A stretch of DNA of 64,000 nt. Origin: Eledone cirrhosa (lineage: Eukaryota). Under the pieces are notes generated by a model. The model had not been told where the DNA came from, ran no database searches, and worked only from the letters and a program-made list of their open reading frames with translations. The first letter of the stretch is position 1. Every line of letters begins with the position of its first letter. Positions 6,932-51,418 of this stretch are shown here, piece after piece. Location of the stretch: NCBI GenBank assembly GCA_964016885.1, contig OZ024746.1:45694001-45758000 (forward strand), in the 5' to 3' direction. Position numbers and translations under genes: made by a program.

Positions 6932-8212
6932 TCTTCTTCTTCTTCTTCTTCTTCTTCTTCTTCTTCTTCTTCTTCTTCTTCTTCTTCTTCTTTCTTCTTC
7001 TTCTTTCATTCTTCTTTTTCTTTTTCTTCTTTCATTCTTCTTCTTTATCTTCTTCTTCTTCTTCTTCTTCTTCTTTCTTCTTCTTCTTTCATTCTTCTTT
7101 TTCTTTTTCTTCTTTCATTCTTCTTCTTCTTCTTCTTCTTCTTCTTCTTCTTTCAATCTTCTTTTTCTTCTTCTTCTTCTTCTTCTTCTTCTTCTTCTTC
7201 TTTTTCTTCTTCTTATTATTCTTCTTCTTCTGCTTTCATTCTTCTTCTTGTTTCATTCTTCTTCTTCTTCTTCTTCTTCTTCTTCTTCTTCTTCTTCTTT
7301 CATTCTTCTTCTTCTTTCATTCTTCTTCTTTTTCTTCTTTGTCTTCTTTTTTTTCTTTTTCTTCTTTCATTCTTCTTCTTCTTCTTCTTCTTCTTCTTCT
7401 TCTTCTTCTTTTTCTTCTTTCATTCTTCTTCTTCTTCTTCTTCTTCTTCTTTTTCTTCTTCTTCTTCTTTCATTCTTCTTCTTCTTCTTCTTCTTCTTCT
7501 TCTTCTTTCATTCTTTTTCTTCTTTCATTCTTCTTCTTCTTCTTCTTCTTCTTCTTCTTCTTCTTCTTCTTCTTTCAATCTTCTTCTTCTTCTTTTTCTT
7601 TTTCTTCTTTCATTCTTCTTCTTCTTCTTCTTCTTCTTCTTCTTCTTCTTCTTCTTTCAATCTTCTTCTTCTTCTTCTTTTTCTTCTTCTTCTTCTTCTT
7701 CTTCTTCTTCTTCTTCTTCTTCTTCTGCTTTCATTCTTCTTCTTGTTTCATTCTTCTTCTTCTTCTTCTTCTTCTTCTTCTTCTTCTTCTTCTTCTTCTT
7801 CTTCTTCTTTCATTCTTCTTCTTCTTTCATTCTTCTTCTTTTTCTTCTTTTTCTTCTTTTTCTTCTTCTTCTTCTTCTTCTTCTTCTTCTTCTTCTTCTT
7901 CTTTTTCTTTTTCTTGTTTCATACTTCTTCATCTTCTTCTTCTACTTCTTTTTTTATTCTTCTTCTTCTTCTTCTTTTTCTTCTTCTTCTTTCATTCTTC
8001 TTCTTCTTCTTCTTCTTCTTCTTCTTCTTCTTCTTCTTCTTCTTCTTCTTCTTCTTTTTTCATTCTTCTTCTTTCATTCTTCTTTTTTTTTTTCTTCTTC
8101 TTCTTGTTCTTTCATTCTTCTTGTTCTTTCATTCTTCTTCTTTTTCTTTTTCTTCTTCTTCTTCTTCTTCTTCTTCTTCTTCTTCTTCTTCTTCTTCTTC
8201 TTCTTCTTCTTC
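6932..8212. repeat. ~1.3 kb compound (TTC)n/(GAA)n tract with TTTCATTC interruptions
   Basis: Direct inspection; source of the spurious 459-509 aa poly-S/F/L ORFs. Confidence 0.97.
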
Positions 8213-19970: not shown

Positions 19971-21876
19971 AGCAAACAACAGTGAAACAACTGTCAAAAG
20001 TGTTGCATTTACAAATGTAACAAACACATTAGAAAAATATATCATGAATGAAGAGAAAGAAGCCAGAGATATATGTCCTATTAATCCAAAAGCACTATAT
20101 GATATACTGCAATTTTTAAAATTTAGATAAAAACATATAGCAATAGGGATAAAATACACAAAATGTCTGTATATATGGATGGATGCATATTTGCTAGTGT
20201 CCAGCCCTTGTTAGCAGATAAAATGGACATTAAGTGATGCTATAAATATTCCACACCACTGGACACTTCTCCAGCCATCCACTCCATACCATGGAAAATA
20301 TCCAGGATCTCTTCTCACACTCGATGGAATTACCTCAGGAACTTACCTATGAACATATACTCACATTTTTTTTCGCACCACGCCACCCACATCCACACCA
20401 CATATAAACACAAACACACACGTGCGTACCCCACTTATTTACAATCTCAACCTCCAGAATCCAGAACATGGAACCTCGTCCTTCTTCTCACATACACACA
20501 CACACACACTCACGTACACCTATACACATACACAAACACCACCTTCAGCCTTCCCAACTCCACCCGCCACCACCCTTACACGCCTTCCACCCTTCCACCA
20601 CTTGCTCATCTTATTGTTAATTCTTATGTTTATTTTTCGTTTATTTTTATTTTTATTTTTATTTGTTCTCCTTCCCCCTTTTTTCTAAATGTATTTCCAC
20701 ACACACTTGGAACTCTCTTCCTAACCTATTTATCACTCTCAAAAGCGTGAACCTAATAAACCTTTATTTGTCTGCCTCTCTGTTTTGTTCCCGTATAAAT
20801 TTGCACTATATATATATATATATATATATCTTCTAAATTTTTATTGATTTTTTGCTGTGACCTGTTCTTCCTCTCCGTTTCCCTTGTTATTATTAACTCT
20901 TTTCCTTCCCCCCTCTCCCTTTCTTTCTTTCCCTCTCTCTCTTCCTCTCCCACTCACTTATACTCTCTTTCTCTCTACTCCCTTACTACTTCCATTTTCT
21001 CTCCTCTCTGCCTCTTTTCGCCTGGTCCTGCCGAGGTTAGACTTGTTTTTCTTCGCTCTCCCTATCTTGCTGTCAATAAGGCCTCAGACTTATGTCCAAC
21101 CACCGGTTTGACTTCTCTCTCTCTCCTGGTTACTTACATACATGTGCTTCTCCTCATGTCCCCCCCCCCCTTATCGGTATGTTTTTTGTGCCTTTTTTTT
21201 CTCTTTTTTCCCTTCGGTTTAATTTATTTTTCACTCTCCTTTTTTCCTTCCCTAATAACTTACAAAAGTTATTGATGCACTGGGGATAGACTTATTGTCT
21301 TTAATGCATTGAAATGTCTGAGACCCCCAGCAAACAACTGAAGAGGGGACCTGCCCCTTGTTTGTGCTTTGCTTTTATTTCTAAATACACTTTATCAAGT
21401 AACCACGCAGCCCCTTGTTCCTTCTAAACTTTTATTAATACATATATATATATTTAAGCATGCAAACATATATACATACTTACATATACTATTTGTATAG
21501 CCTGGTTCACTGATATTCAAATTTTGCCAATGCTGGTTAGTCATCCAATGAAGACATTAGTTGATGCAATTTAAAAAACATTGTTTAATCTAGGAGAATG
21601 ATGAGAGTTTGGGAAATTTGTTTGAATGTGAAAAGGTTGAAGGGCAATTTTGTTTGGGTGTGATTATTGTTTTGAATGAATTAAATTTTCTCTGTGACCT
21701 TTGCTTTGTAAGCATATTATGTTAATAAAGATATCTTTATTTATCATGAATGACCCATTCCTGCATATATTAGTAAACGACTTGCACATAGAGACTTCAA
21801 TTGTGTTGGGATGGGGAAAAGGTTATATAAAAATAAAGGAAGGTAGGGAAACTGTATAAGACATATATATATATAT

Positions 21877-21918
<42 letters not shown>

Positions 21919-21923
<5 letters not shown>

Positions 21924-22784
21924 TTGAAAAAAATGAAAACGAAAAACGAAATTTCATTTCTCACTCTTAGTATGGCACTTACTTAAATGTAAGTATGTAT
22001 GTATACGTACATACATATATGTATACAGACGTACAGTAGCATGTATATATATATATATATACATACATGCAGGTACACATACATATATGCACGCATCAGT
22101 TTAGCAGACGCTTATTATAGCGCTGCTTTGTTCGTTTGTCAACAAACTGAACAGCCTGAATTTATGCCATACGGTGTCAGTGTTGAACAAAAAGGTGACG
22201 TGGTTGCCTTAACACCGTATGGCATAAATTCAGGCTGTTCAGTTTGTTGACAAACGAACAAAGCAGCGCTATAATAAGCGTCTGCTAAACTGATGCGTGC
22301 ATATATGTATGTGTACCTGCATGTATGTATATATATATATATACATGCTACTGTACGTCTGTATACATATATGTATGTACGTATACATACATACTTACAT
22401 TTAAGTAAGTGCCATACTAAGAGTGAGAAATGAAATTTCGTTTTTCGTTTTCATTTTTTTCAACTTATCGTTTTCGGTATGCCTGACCGATTTAACTCAC
22501 TCAATATGCAAATTAGGCTGCTCAGCCGTTAATTTTCATAAGGAAAGTATATACTTTCGAACGTTCAACTATCTGGCAGATGGGTAAACGGTGCTGATGA
22601 TAGCTAACAAGCTTGAAACTAGTACATCGTTCCTGTGTCAGTGTTGAACAAAAAGGTGACGTGGTTGCCTTAACACCGTATGGCATAAATTCAGGCTGTT
22701 CAGTTTGTTGACAAACGAACAAAGCAGCGCTATAATAAGCGTCTGCTAAACTGATGCGTGCATATATGTATATGTACCTGCATG

Positions 22785-22821
<37 letters not shown>

Positions 22822-22868
22822 GCTACTGTACGTCTGTATACATATATGTATGTACGTATACATACATA

Positions 22869-22869
<1 letters not shown>
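21919..22869 (+). mobile_element. HHR-bearing PLE-type/retrozyme-like insertion: inverted arm plus tandem units (period 461 bp) in (TA)n
   Basis: Arms 21919-22177 and 22212-22468 are reverse complements apart from one TA unit, with a 34-nt spacer; sequence from 22174 recurs at 22635; (TA)n on both flanks. Confidence 0.85.
22587..22631 (+). ncRNA. Minimal type I hammerhead ribozyme
   Basis: aacggtg-CTGATGA-t-agct-aaca-agct-t-GAAA-ctag-TA^catcgtt: 7-bp stem I, 4-bp stem II, palindromic ACTAGT stem III, GUA cleavage site after 22624. Confidence 0.85.
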
Positions 22870-22931
<62 letters not shown>

Positions 22932-43230: not shown

Positions 43231-43530
43231 GTGTATATATGTGTATATATGTGTATGTATATATATATTTGTATGGTTGTGTATGTGTGTATGTATATAT
43301 GTGTATGTATATGCATAATTACATACAGAGTGATTTAATGTTTATTTTCATTGATTATTTGCTCCAGGAACTTGTTGAGTGCTCTAAATCAGCTATAAAC
43401 ATATATACCTTTATTTATTTATTTATTATTTGTCATATTCCCAACTATTTGTTTACCCCTTCCACCTTTTTATTTTTATATATATATAATATTTTTGTAT
43501 TTTCTTATATATATATATATACACACACAG
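41808..43530 (+). mobile_element. Penelope-like element A (5'-truncated; RT C-terminus, GIY-YIG, 3' UTR)
   Basis: NFLDIDLDL..FKPYHKPN..SHPP (frameshifted), then ORF 42179-42826 IWFTPPFS..KTNVG..KIFNRN..KISYSC, CxCx5Cx5C linker (CSCRKPDECPLQDKC), VVY..YVV GIY-YIG, CSLC..LN..E..CPH. Confidence 0.93.
42179..42826 (+). pseudogene. PLE A linker and GIY-YIG endonuclease reading frame (215 aa remnant)
   Basis: ORF track 42179..42826; upstream RT part is frameshifted and truncated. Confidence 0.88.
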
Positions 43531-43837
43531 TTCAAGAGTAACCAATCTTAAAGAGAGAGATGGAGATAGTAAAGGAGATATGAGAGGAAAGATTGGTGAG
43601 TTAGTTAGAAGCCAAAGCGTAACGGCATGTGCTCAATGTGCAATATGCAGTAGAAAGCAGCTAGGTGGCTGGGTTCATGCAGAGGTTAGGTGCGCAGAGC
43701 TGGAAATATTCATTAGTTAAGCAAAACAAGACCACAAATTTCACAAGGAAGACATTACTAAAAGATTGTCAACATATTTTAGTTTGATGTAAGGAATGTA
43801 GAGAATAATAATAATGATAATATTAATAATAATAATG

Positions 43838-43971
43838 TCCGTTTACAATTGTTTCGCTACTCCGTATAATATTTCTGGATCGGATGACTATGTATCATAA
43901 TTGATCTGGTTCAGTTGAAAATAATTAACATATTTAAAAAAACAGAGTGGCTCATCGGAACTCAAAGGAAT
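43838..43971 (-). ncRNA. Type I hammerhead motif in PLE B 3' UTR (left arm copy)
   Basis: Reverse complement of the motif at 48021-48154. Confidence 0.6.
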
Positions 43972-44307
43972 ATAAATTAAAATAATGTTACATAATATAA
44001 TGTTCCATATATTAGTTATTACTATGGTGCCTTGGTTGCATCAGCTGTCAGCCATAATCAAGCAGTACTCATCTGTCGAGGCTGCATTGTGTGAGATCTG
44101 CCTATAGGTAACAAAATGGCTGCCAAAGGGCATATTTACCTTACTAATTAGAGGGTGGTTTCAGGGGAAGTCACTTCTCGAGAGATTAGAGATTGTGTGT
44201 ATTTTATAGTTATGTGCTAGTATTTAAATTATTTAATTGAGAGACAATATAAGGGAGGTAACTTATAATTATCGAGTTCATAGCAATTTAACTTATTAGC
44301 TACAGGA

Positions 44308-46806
44308 CTAAGTTGGGTCAAAAACTCTATTGGCGAAGGAATTAGCCCTTCGATGTTGACAGCTAATGGTAACCTCCGTTCTATCGTTAATTGGTAGAGG
44401 TCGTGATAGAGTTATGTAATAGCTTCCGTAATACAGTGATCACAAGATTTCCTTCGTCCATTGAACGGTTGGGCCCTAGCTACGATATCCCATTTTAGTG
44501 AGTGTTGAACTTTGTTTAATTTAAGGTTTTTAATGAGCCTAGCTAACGATGTCGAACATCTGTTGCTAGGGTCTCGGAAGGAAAAAGAGTGCGCGTTATA
44601 GCGTACCTTAAAAGGGTTAGAGATAGACCCGATATAAGAGCTGGTATTCGAAGCAGTCTCAACTTTGCACCTATAGACTATGTTGGGTGTCAGGCAGTGT
44701 CCATTTAATGGGCATGCATTGGGGTACCGGCAGTTGCAGTTGCTTCTGCGGTTAGTGAGAGTAGGGTTATTTAACCTAAGCAGTTGGTCCGTGCTAGAAG
44801 GTTTAGATGGGGGAGGTGTGCTACTAGAGTAATTATTGGTGTAGTGGCTTGGTGTATTTGATAGGGGTGGTGGTACCGCGGTGTGGGAGTTATACTGTCT
44901 TAGCTCATGATGGTTACTGAACGCGATGTGGCAAGCTAGGTTAGGTGTTGTGGAGAATGAGGTTTTAATGTTGTTTTTATTAAAGAGTTTGTAATATCTA
45001 TGGTTGGGGGGAAGTGTTTGGATAGGATAGAGAAGAAGCGATTGGGGATATTAGTGGCTAGATTAGATGAGAATGGTGGGTTAAGCCAGGTGATATTTCT
45101 AGGTCTATTCCTTCTAGGGGTTCTAGTGGAGTTGGTAGGGGCCTTCCTAAGGTTATTATTACCTGGGGGTTTGTTATTTGTCATCCCATTTCTCATTGCT
45201 ATTCTAGGGTTGATTCTTAGTTTGCTACTAGGAGTGGGGAGCAGGCCCCTGCCACCATTAAAGTTCCCTGTATAGGTGCTGTTACTGCTAAAATTCCGGC
45301 GAATCTGGCTATATGCTAAGGTATTTCTAGTTCTAGTGTTAAGTTTATTATGGTGAGTTGCTGTGTTATGGCATTTTGGTATATAATAAATTGATTGTTT
45401 ATAACCAGATTCAGAGAGAGCCTTATTATAATATTGTGCGTGGTTTATAAATATCTCTTCATTTGCTGATAGCATTGAGATCCTATAGGAGATAGATTTG
45501 ATTACTGCTCTGATGACTGCCGGTGGGTGGTTAGAGTGTGGGCTAATATATGTGAGTATTTCTCCTGGTTTATGGTAATGGTTATAAAGGTTATTGTTGA
45601 GATCAAGGGTGATGTCTAGGAAGTTTACTACTTTATGGTTCAGCTCGATGGTGATAGAGAGACCGTTATTTTTTAAGAATCTATGAAATTGTTTCTTAAG
45701 CAACTCGATTCCCCGATTAGTGCAATTGTGGACTGCAAATAGGGCGTCGTCCCTGTATATTCCACCTTGCATGGGTTGGATTTCGGCTCTGATGTTACGT
45801 AATAAGTAAATCCCAACTAAATCGGTGATTTGCGCGGAGTCACTTGAGCCCATTGTAATGTCAAAGTTGTCTGTTCTATCTTTTCTAGTCCAGAGTGCTC
45901 CGTTGAATTCAATGATAGTCTGCCTAGCCATGAGTATGATGTTAATCTCATTATTGGTTATGTCCGAGTTGGTGGTGGCTCGGGCTAGTGCTTTGTTGAG
46001 CAGTTCCGGGGTTATTTACGCGTAATAACTGTCTATATCAAATTGGTGAACCTCATAGATTGCTTGGAACTTAGATCGGAGAACCATCTGATGACTTGGC
46101 CGGTGTTGGACCACAACTTGTAGGTGGTATCATCCCGTAGCCCAGGGATTATCCTATCAAGGATGTTCTTACTGATGCGGCCCAGGTCAGATGTGGTTGG
46201 GCTTATGAGTCTAATGGATGGGTTCTCTATAAAGTTTGGCTTGTGGTCCTTGAGAGAGAACCTTGGGGTTGTTGGTACATAAGGGTGGGTAAATCTATCC
46301 AAATGCAAGTCCTTAACCAAAGCCTGGGCTTTTCGGTTAAGTACGTTTACATTGGAGGGTGTAGTTTTTTTATAGTTTTTGTTGAGTTCTTTAAGAAGGA
46401 AAGAGTTGTAAATTTCAGGAGTCATGGTGTATAGATTTTTGGTTTTGTCAGACATAACATGTAAGAGGTTGCTATCCTTAAATTTTTTTATAGTTGTTGC
46501 TAATGTAGTGAGGAAGTTATTCCTGTGTCTATAATGCTTTTTGAACTTAATGCTCCTGACGAAGTTGAATAGATCTTTATCAAAAGGGTCCAGCAGGATG
46601 TTGTGTGGGGGGTTCTTGCATGTGGCAAATCCATATCTATTTGCTGTACTTCTGGCGTCAGCAGCAACCGCACGGTCAAAGTTGTACGCTTTCCATCTTA
46701 TTCTTCGGATGAAAGAGTTGACACTCTGTATTAATAGTTTGAGGTATGTCTTTCTCTCCGGAATAGGTAAGGACTTAAGTGGGATTCTGAGTTCCTGTTT
46801 CTTGTT
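44308..46806 (-). pseudogene. PLE B RT-GIY-YIG polyprotein, disrupted
   Basis: ORFs 46033..46824 and 44936..45931 plus the EN segment join through frameshifts at ~46030, ~45008 and ~44418. Confidence 0.92.
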
Positions 46807-48020
46807 TGAGAAATGGGATGACAAATAACAAACCCCCAGGTAATAATAACCCCTACCAACTCCACTAGAACCCCTAGAAGGAATAGACCTCGAAATATCA
46901 CCTGGCTTAAGCCAACATTCTCATCTAATCTAGCCACTAATTTCCCCAATCGCTTCTTCTCTATCCTATCCAAACACTTCCCCCCTAACCATAGATATTA
47001 CAAACTCTTTAATAAAAACAACATTAAAATCTCATTCTCCACAACACGTAACCTAGCTAGCCACATCGCGTTCAGTAACCATCATAAGCTAAGACAGTAT
47101 AACTCCCACACCGCGGTACCACCACCCCTATCAAATACACCAAGCCACTACACCAATAATTCCTCTAGTAGCACACCTCCCCCATCTAATCCTTCTAGCA
47201 CGGACCAACTGCTTAGGTTAAATAACCCTACTCTCACTAACCGCAGAAGCAACTGCAACTGCCGGTACCCCAATGCATGCCCATTAAATGGACACTGCCT
47301 GACATCCAACATAGTCTATAGGTGCACAGTTGAGACTGCTTCGAGTACCAGCTCTTATATCGGGTCTACCTCTAACCCTTTTAAGGTACGCTATAACGCG
47401 CACTCTTTTTCCTTCCGAGATCCTAGCAACAGATATTCGACATCGTTAGCTAGGCTCATTAAAAACCTTAAATTAAACAAAGTTCAACACTCACTAAAAT
47501 GGGATATCGTAGCTAGGGCCCAACCGTTCAATGGACGAAGGAAATCTTGTGATCACTGTGTTACGGAAGCTATTACATAACTCTATCACGACCTCTACCA
47601 ATTAACGATAGAACGGAGGTTACCATTAGCTGTCAACATCGAGGGGCTAATTCCTTCGCCAATAGAGTTTTTGACCCAACTTAGTCATGTAGCTAATAAG
47701 TTAAATTGCTATGAACTCGATAATTATAAGTTACCTCCCCTACATTGTCTCTCAATTAAATAATTTAAATACTAGCACATAACTATAAAATACACACAAT
47801 CTCTAATCTCTCGAGAAGTTACTTCCCCTGAAACCACCCTCTAATTAGTAAGGTAAATATGCCCTTTGGCAGCCATCTTGTTACCCATAGGCAGATCTCA
47901 CACAATGCAGCCTCGACAGATGAGTACTGCTTGATTATGGCTGACAGCTGATGCAACCAAGGCACCATAGTAAAAACTAATATATGGAACATTATATTAT
48001 GTAACATTATTTTAATTTAT

Positions 48021-48154
48021 ATTCCTTTGAGTTCCGATGAGCCACTCTGTTTTTTTAAATATGTTAATTATTTTCAACTGAACCAGATCAATTATGATAC
48101 ATAGTCATCCGATCCAGAAATATTATACGGAGTAGCGAAACAATTGTAAACGGA
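48021..48154 (+). ncRNA. Type I hammerhead motif in PLE B 3' UTR (right arm copy)
   Basis: gtt-CCGATGA-gccactctg-(78 nt)-cggagtagc-GAAA-caattg-TA^aac; palindromic stem III ACAATTGT; U4C core variant; cleavage predicted after 48148. Confidence 0.6.
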
Positions 48155-48461
48155 CATTATTATTATTAATATTATCATTATTATTATTCTCTACATTTCT
48201 TACATCAAACTAAAATACGTTGACAATCTTTTAATAATGTCTTCCTTGTGAAATTTGTAGTCTTGTTTTGCTTAACTAATGAATATTTCCAGCTCTGCGC
48301 ACCTAACCTCTGCATGAACCCAGCCACCTAGCTGCTTTCTACTGCATATTGCACATTGAGCACATGCCGTTACGCTTTGGCTTCTAACTAACTCACCAAT
48401 CTTTCCTCTCATATCTCCTCTACTATCTCCATCTCTCTCTTTAAGATTGGTTACTCTTGAA

Positions 48462-48636
<175 letters not shown>

Positions 48637-50665: not shown

Positions 50666-51033
50666 ATATGTATATGTGTGTGTGCGTGTGTGTGCATGTG
50701 TGTTTATCTATTTTATATTTATTCTTTTTCCTTTCCTTCTTCCTTTTTCAGCCTCACTTTCATATAGATTATATTTTTGTTTTTAAAATCCACTGTCAAT
50801 AAATACACCAGAATTTTTTCATTCTGATGCATTCTGATTCATTCTGATGCATTCTGAAAGCAAAGTTTGCTTGCTTTCAAGAAACCACTGGTAAATGAAA
50901 TAATTATCTTATGTTGTTTATTACATAACTATGTTAATATATATATACTTGCGTACACACAAATACTCACATATATATATATGTCATCATCATCGTCATC
51001 ATGCGTTTTATGTTCATATATATATATATATAT

Positions 51034-51395
51034 AAATGGAAAAAATGAAACGAAATTTCATTTCTCACTCTTAGTACGGCTGTTACTTAAATATAAGTAT
51101 GTATACGTACATACATATATGTATACAGACGTACAGTAGTATGTATATATATATACATACATGCACACATATATATATATGTACGTATGGATTCACCAAA
51201 CATTTATTATAATGCTCGGTGTGTTTGTAACCAAACATCCCAAATTAAGCCGTACAGTGTCTAGCAACCATCGTTGCTCATTTGTTCAACACTGACAAAG
51301 GAACGCTGTACTAGTTTCAAGCTTATTAGCTATCGCCAGCAACATATACCTTCCTGCCAGATGGTTGAACGTCTGAAAGTATATACTTTCCTTAT
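51034..51395 (-). mobile_element. Diverged copy of the HHR-bearing unit at 21919-22869
   Basis: Shares gaaatttcatttctcactcttagta, cagacgtacagtag, ttgttcaacactgaca, gtactagtttcaagctt.ttagctatc and gaaagtatatactttccttatg; abuts (TA)n. Confidence 0.9.
51303..51345 (-). ncRNA. Hammerhead motif, core-mutated (CTGGCGA)
   Basis: atgttg-CTGGCGA-tagctaataagctt-GAAA-ctag-TA^cagcgt; A6G change, probably inactive. Confidence 0.65.
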
Positions 51396-51418
51396 GCATA
51401 TTATACTTATATATACAA

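Follow-up and report, generated by a model that had tools for sequence, protein, structure and literature searches.

The palindromic locus at 21919..22869 of the window, the 64,000-nt stretch of Eledone cirrhosa DNA analysed here, is one insertion of an abundant, young, non-coding family whose 461-nt unit carries a hammerhead. Judged by its DNA features, the family can be assigned with high confidence to the non-LTR retrozymes, and it was very likely moved by a Penelope-like element (PLE). We hold with moderate confidence that this 461-nt retrozyme was copied into (TA)n by a PLE reverse transcriptase-endonuclease, probably from circular RNA. It is a further member of the non-LTR retrozymes, with unusually clear evidence at the DNA level on the mechanism of integration.

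Results

The insertion lies between two (TA)n tracts (left flank 21863..21918, right flank 22870..22930), as the earlier note on this DNA had described. Monomer positions are counted from the base that follows the hammerhead cleavage site (position 1). The left arm (21919..22177, minus strand) comprises positions 49-305 and ends at the family's long 3' end. Its outermost 65 nt (21919..21983, minus strand; positions 241-305) form the tail by which the long end exceeds the short one; it is present only at this end of the insertion. The right arm (22174..22869, plus strand) comprises positions 11-461 and then 1 to about 230; it crosses the cleavage site and ends at the short 3' end. The arms meet head to head at 22174..22177, where we found the 4-nt gtgt microhomology proposed before. 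The near-perfect palindrome with its 34-nt loop was likewise observed, its arms 21919-22177 and 22212-22468 differing only by 2 nt of (TA)n. So was the second direct copy: 22174 is found again at 22635 (period 461 bp), and this copy, with one substitution and 14 nt of extra (TA)n, terminates near 22869. Along the plus strand of the right arm lie a hairpin with an AUAAUAA loop (22263..22285), whose stem sequence differs by subfamily and yet stays complementary in each, a self-complementary TA/TG-rich tract of variable length (22298..22403, positions 135-240), and an internal tail copy (22404..22468) that continues into position 306 through the junction caactt/atcgttttcgg. As the earlier note had stated, there is no long open reading frame; in a trimer of the monomer the longest stop-free frame of the sense strand has 60 aa. 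An older, single-arm copy of the family, 78-86% identical, lies on the minus strand at about 50990-51403 of the window, with its long end in (TA)n and its hammerhead core mutated to CTGGCGA.

The right arm contains the predicted type I hammerhead motif (22582..22634, plus strand), and all of its core and stem parts were located. Stem I is formed by AACGGTG (22587-22593) and CATCGTT (22625-22631) with 7 bp, the core by CTGATGA (CUGAUGA in RNA, 22594-22600) and GAAA (22615-22618), stem II by AGCT/AGCT (4 bp) with a U.U pair at its base, and stem III by the palindromic A-CTAG-T. Cleavage is predicted after 22624, and 22635 is indeed the 11th position past it. This is the single hammerhead of the insertion, and release of a monomer by the locus itself is therefore not expected. 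The Rfam hammerhead score was 18.5 bits, below the cut-off of 52; the only other Rfam matches were spurious miRNA matches on the TA tract. The lowest-energy fold of the isolated motif differs from the active fold (z -0.68), and the circular monomer folds with z -8.6, for which the TA tract is partly responsible. Comparison of family copies revealed that subfamilies 75-100% identical retain the catalytic core, with core position 7 variable (T or C), and that stem I covaries. Pair 3 of stem I is G.U in 209, U.G in 28, A-U in 17 and U-A in 3 copies, which are copies and not independent events.

In the genome, where the window occupies 45694001-45758000 of C6, we counted 10,122 exact matches to the 40-nt hammerhead (reversed control 0) and 27,626 to a looser hammerhead motif (control 0). 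The 40-mer spanning the 22468 junction occurs 1,862 times with none in the control, so the recurrence that the earlier note had asked about is real. The long end joined to (TA)n was found 6,161 times. A genome query across the junction returned 1,814 candidates, and the 40 that were scored are full-length, about 100% identical and distributed over seven contigs. From the recurring junction together with the full-length copies, we conclude that 22174-22634 is the true monomer. Tandem arrays are present at many loci, with near 100% identity on several chromosomes, and 108 full monomers fall into the subfamilies just mentioned. We estimate that some 27,600 units make up about 12 Mb, or 0.4% of the 3.0-Gb genome. 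The unit was also found in six public runs (kind unrecorded, four organism codes), and contigs of three out of four runs matched it. The family thus has the characters of a retrozyme: dispersal at high copy number, a short tandem repeat with a type I hammerhead in every unit, and non-coding, head-to-tail units with no LTR layout. A plant LTR retrozyme, which has a type III hammerhead in two LTRs, was ruled out by the type I motif and the open tandem arrays.

The anatomy of insertions was read in two samples. The first comprised the 50 loci to which the first 100 exact hammerheads of C1 belong, together with 10 chosen arrays; the second comprised the first 100 loci on C1 with a long 3' end joined to (TA)n. 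In all, 21 loci are common to both, so that the tallies overlap. Because anchored x-drop mapping overextends in the self-complementary tract, arms were mapped by blocks, with no score given to 5' ends that fall in positions 135-250. An insertion is a concatemer of between one and more than 12 units set in (TA)n. The 3' ends of the insertions concentrate at about 228-244 (short) and about 302-305 (long), followed by (TA)n, and a few reach 308-317; the short and long outer ends are about 65 nt apart. Among the 100 long-end loci, 61 carry an inverted head-to-head arm and 39 have no partner. Forty-six of the 61 inverted arms are short, where 'short' was scored loosely as an end near 212-240 with no tail, and one is long; seven break in the TA tract, six break elsewhere and one runs beyond the fetched stretch. 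Two loci of this sample (L195 and L196) are a local duplicate. The 50 hammerhead-picked loci contain 31 junctions, 21 of them long/short, none long/long and none short/short; in the remaining 10 one end is ambiguous, and two of these could be short/short. Junction overlaps are often 1-7 nt, some junctions fall at palindromes and some have extra bases.

These results show that, where both ends could be assigned, the two arms nearly always use different ones of the two fixed ends. The window locus matches this layout, with a long left arm (49-305), a short right arm (to about 230) and a 4-nt overlap; its two outer ends coincide with the family's two fixed start sites, a point that the earlier note had overlooked. 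In the manner of PLE-mobilised elements, insertions have two fixed 3' ends with a tail on one end only, and partial tandems with an inverted 5'-truncated copy at the head. Collectively, the monomer, the copy number, the (TA)n ends and the arms support the earlier proposal of a retrozyme-type hammerhead unit of about 460 nt moved in PLE style. At two head-to-head junctions (L089:3167-3308 and L086:3304-3349) we observed short repeated snippets, like successive jumps of a polymerase before joining. Nests in which the retrozyme and further elements that target (TA)n sit in each other's TA tails occur at L043, L132 and L218.

PLEs were then sought in the same genome by a GIY-YIG search, which gave 10,596 candidates; 150 were scored, and 50 loci were compared with the unit. 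The fetched loci contain open reading frames with reverse transcriptase and GIY-YIG domains, of 938 and up to 1,096 aa, so that autonomous, endonuclease-bearing PLEs with (TA)n ends are present. In one of them (L121) the endonuclease is C-terminal and there is a CxxxxCxxC linker, which is described as a Neptune feature by Craig et al. (2021, 10.1101/2021.04.23.441226), and Atlas groups it with PLE-type clusters. By eye, the ends of each of four multicopy PLE families bearing hammerheads lie in (TA)n and come in a short and a long form; the tail measures about 40 nt, and 66 nt in the L121 family. Also by eye, 11 two-armed PLE insertions (L043, L102, L126, L130, L133, L136, L137, L138, L139, L163 and L186) each have one long and one short arm. 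In full-length L121 the upstream tail continues straight into the leader of the open reading frame, as the retrozyme tail continues into position 306. Within the 50 GIY-YIG loci, blastn and a profile of seven real monomers detected no unit-like sequence beyond insertions and noise: three loci (L115, L131, L132) carry independent insertions of the unit, and the other matches are noise on the TA tract. A search for a partner PLE with variant hammerheads revealed no new family; its 29 matches (8 in the control) are mostly mutated family copies or chance. The stretch 22467-22532 had been offered as the last stub of an autonomous PLE reading frame, and this idea fails, with no credible match in the fetched PLE open reading frames. 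The ATG is lost in older subfamilies, and comparison with L121 places the stretch where a PLE reading frame would begin, not end.

Several other observations concern further elements. Hammerhead-like cores with U3 and A8 replacing C3 and G8 (TTGAAAA, TTGATAA), presumably a compensated core pair, and with stem III A-CCGG-T, occur in several PLE families, at L121, L126 and L130 and in the L097 and L091 families. Recurrent hammerhead-like motifs unrelated to the unit were found at L126:7100-7400, L130:8645, L137:5962, L131:7351, L144:146, L166:74 and L047:5194, and one pair of such motifs stands head to head at about 300 bp or closer. The genome probably holds further retrozyme or PLE families. 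The window itself contains, at about 43500-48470, a head-to-head insertion of another Penelope-like family, with inverted arms of more than 1.3 kb, (TA)n flanks and frameshifted reverse transcriptase and C-terminal GIY-YIG-like frames. Its Atlas matches share HTH_animal; no Pfam match, no tblastn match to the L121 protein and no similarity to the retrozyme were found for it. A nested inverted stretch adjoins it near 43300. Ten open reading frames of the window had no Pfam match, and about 410 copies of a TCT repeat at 6932-8212 give rise to long low-complexity open frames.

Discussion

If a cleaved linear monomer were the template, 5' ends would be stacked at position 1, beyond which no arm would extend. 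The cleavage site was read through in 116 of 121 arrivals, and 46 of the 100 long arms pass it. Only 5 of 113 scored 5' ends fall within the 21 nt around the site, where 7.2 were expected (p 0.85). Hence the template was not a cleaved linear monomer but a circle or an uncleaved multimer. The template switch near the cleaved 5' end that the earlier note had postulated finds no support in these counts, and its occurrence near that site at the window locus is due to chance.

The units of one insertion are closely related, differing by a median of 0.4% as against 3.4% between loci (190 units), and in 28 of 28 loci the long arm is nearer to its own partner arm than to the median foreign arm (3.3% vs 11.5%). 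In one locus (L249), which was fetched for its spacing and thus picked for period, unit types of 500 nt and 544 nt alternate through 12 full units in both arms. The two types differ by 4 substitutions and 44 gap bases, and both arms begin in the same type. Such alternation is as expected of a dimeric, two-unit circle. Clear period-2 structure was seen in only 4 of 17 long arms, and periods of this kind can also be produced by local duplication. Both arms starting in the same unit was favoured in 5 loci and opposed in 5, with 14 ties among 24 loci, the window locus being on the opposing side, and at L087 the two arms have different private variants. Within-array variants of 26 loci showed no footprint of RNA editing (A>G 20, T>C 17). 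One unit of a homogeneous array (L084:5669-6019) carries a patch of another subfamily's haplotype, from a template switch or gene conversion.

At the DNA level, a circle and a long linear multimer lead to nearly the same expectations. The same element and PLE enzyme could have used an uncleaved, linear read-through transcript of an array as the template, with circles a by-product if made at all; we regard this as possible but rather unlikely. Reading through the cleavage site fits a linear template equally well, mosaic variants in long arrays (L082, L083) suit heterogeneous multimers, and stems II and III are weak, the lowest-energy fold being inactive. In vitro, moreover, the anole PLE worked mainly on uncleaved RNA, and hammerhead cleavage was dispensable there (Frangieh et al., 2024, PMC11167929). 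On the other hand, most loci have fewer than two units, so that few could template arms of 7-13 units, and strict A/B alternation over 12 units requires repeated copying at some step. Retention of the core across the subfamilies suggests that cleavage may matter, and circles are reported as abundant in coral, mussel and axolotl (Cervera and de la Pena, 2020, PMC7229834). Weighing these points, we consider a circular template about twice as likely as a linear multimer.

With the circle as template, integration may proceed as follows. Tandem arrays would be transcribed, paired hammerheads would excise monomers or multimers (the ACUAGU palindrome suits a double hammerhead), and ligation would yield circles. 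A PLE protein, probably a Neptune-type dimer, would nick both (TA)n strands. One subunit would prime at about position 305 of the RNA and the other at about 230-240, and each would travel 5'-ward round the circle over a random distance as it copies. Microhomology of a few bases, in some cases at a palindrome, would then unite the two cDNAs, and fill-in would follow.

The earlier note had explained the inverted arm by fold-back, that is, a cDNA that primes itself and is copied back toward the target, which is close to an idea in Arkhipova et al. (PMC3846280), where this head-to-head layout, tailed or untailed, is described and self-priming is favoured. This is feasible at the window locus, whose 257-nt long arm falls within the inner unit and matches the inner and not the outer unit. 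It would also account for the haplotype common to both arms. Mirror junctions exist at L056 and at L249, the latter nearly a perfect mirror and so compatible with fold-back, and mirror-like junctions (7 vs 4.0 expected, p 0.095) and same-phase junctions (p 0.081) are in slight excess. However, a comparison of the arms of 39 two-armed loci, those with 5' ends falling in the TA tract being excluded, refutes fold-back as the sole rule: in 11 of them, copying of one arm from the other is impossible in either direction, even if 30 nt of slack are allowed. Arm lengths are uncorrelated (Spearman 0.12, p 0.46), the phase difference between arms is uniform (Rayleigh p about 0.66), and 5' ends do not pile up at the cleavage site. 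As the main origin of the inverted arm fold-back is thus improbable. The impossible copies together with the uncorrelated arms indicate that two primings explain most cases, to which fold-back may add some, the window locus among them.

It is very improbable that the family is a satellite amplified at the DNA level by unequal exchange from PLE end fragments, or a stack of 5'-truncated pLTRs. Some higher-order periodicity (L034, L084, L260) can come from local duplication, and local amplification of terminal repeats is proposed by Li, Clavereau and Pollet (2026, bioRxiv 10.64898/2026.07.22.740005). Against both, arrays start and stop at PLE-type sites, both arms share haplotypes, the 22468 junction recurs 1,862 times, and none of the 50 GIY-YIG loci holds a homologous PLE. 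The pLTR reading, an alternative in the earlier note, fails in particular, as no parsed copy runs into a reverse transcriptase/GIY-YIG open reading frame. Long palindromes can be artefacts of assembly or sequencing, and the chance of this here is very small, as the stagger between the outer ends is the one fixed in the family, the same layout recurs with different junctions at dozens of loci, and contigs of two public runs carry opposite-strand joints in the unit.

Two primings are also familiar from L1, in which twin priming from both target strands, joined by microhomology, leads to inversion. In L1 inversion no sequence is duplicated and the second start is random, whereas here the two arms span one common sequence and each start is fixed. 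For the PLE protein, Frangieh et al. (2024) describe cutting and extension of both strands of AT-rich DNA, two adjacent internal RNA start sites that bound the tail, and a protein predicted to be a dimer. The two fixed ends of the family match these two start sites. The start site is given there with no difference between strands, and our near-strict long/short pairing adds an asymmetry to that picture.

Cervera and de la Pena (2020) define non-LTR retrozymes and name PLEs as candidate movers. Like the metazoan retrozymes described there, the present family is a non-coding tandem with one type I hammerhead per unit, in thousands of copies, with low GC and a self-paired predicted circle. Its stem III, with a palindromic tetraloop, resembles that of axolotl HHR_Amex1, and the U.U at the base of stem II that of HHR_Amex2. 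In contrast, its 461 nt are at or above the reported 150-450 bp, the family is described here from its DNA, and no target-site duplication can be read within (TA)n; inverted arms and microsatellite targets receive no mention in the passages of that paper covered here. Li et al. (2026) regard retrozymes as non-autonomous derivatives of PLEs, from co-occurrence and pLTR homology in Xenopus, where one of nine retrozyme dimers was cleaved in vitro. The present family is likewise non-autonomous and co-occurs with endonuclease-bearing PLEs. It differs in having no pLTR homologue among the sampled loci, so that the link is the integration signature, and its arrays look inserted ready-made instead of locally amplified. 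With Neptune-type PLEs (Craig et al., 2021; Frangieh et al., 2024) it shares partial tandems, an inverted 5'-truncated head copy, a tail at one end, a (TA)n target and a hammerhead with a 4-nt palindromic stem III. Unlike them, it has no open reading frame, a tail of about 65 nt where 30-40 is usual, many full units per arm, and no sequence similarity to the sampled PLE families. In the literature covered, which left aside most subscription journals and the repeat libraries (Repbase, Dfam), neither a cephalopod retrozyme nor a retrozyme with head-to-head arms is described.

How retrozymes move, and how the tandem, inverted and tailed insertions of PLEs originate, are treated as open questions by Cervera and de la Pena (2020), Craig et al. 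(2021) and Frangieh et al. (2024). We tentatively suggest, as a broader reading that is possible but doubtful, that a PLE dimer works on one circular RNA, with subunits obliged to start 65 nt apart, one for each nicked strand, and rolling round monomeric or multimeric circles. One rule would then account for the tail, the inversion and the tandem pseudo-LTRs of all PLEs; the autonomous element would also be copied from a circle, and the retrozyme would be the minimal substrate with no open reading frame, displaying the rule in thousands of copies.

In summary, the family presents the full PLE signature with no open reading frame in thousands of young copies, which makes the rules of integration countable: one arm for each start site, no halt of copying at the ribozyme cut, and both arms from one subfamily. 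At one locus, L249, a two-unit template was apparently copied many times. For the in vitro PLE assay that already exists, the family offers a substrate of 461 nt whose start sites are predicted, and it is a source of long palindromes in this genome.
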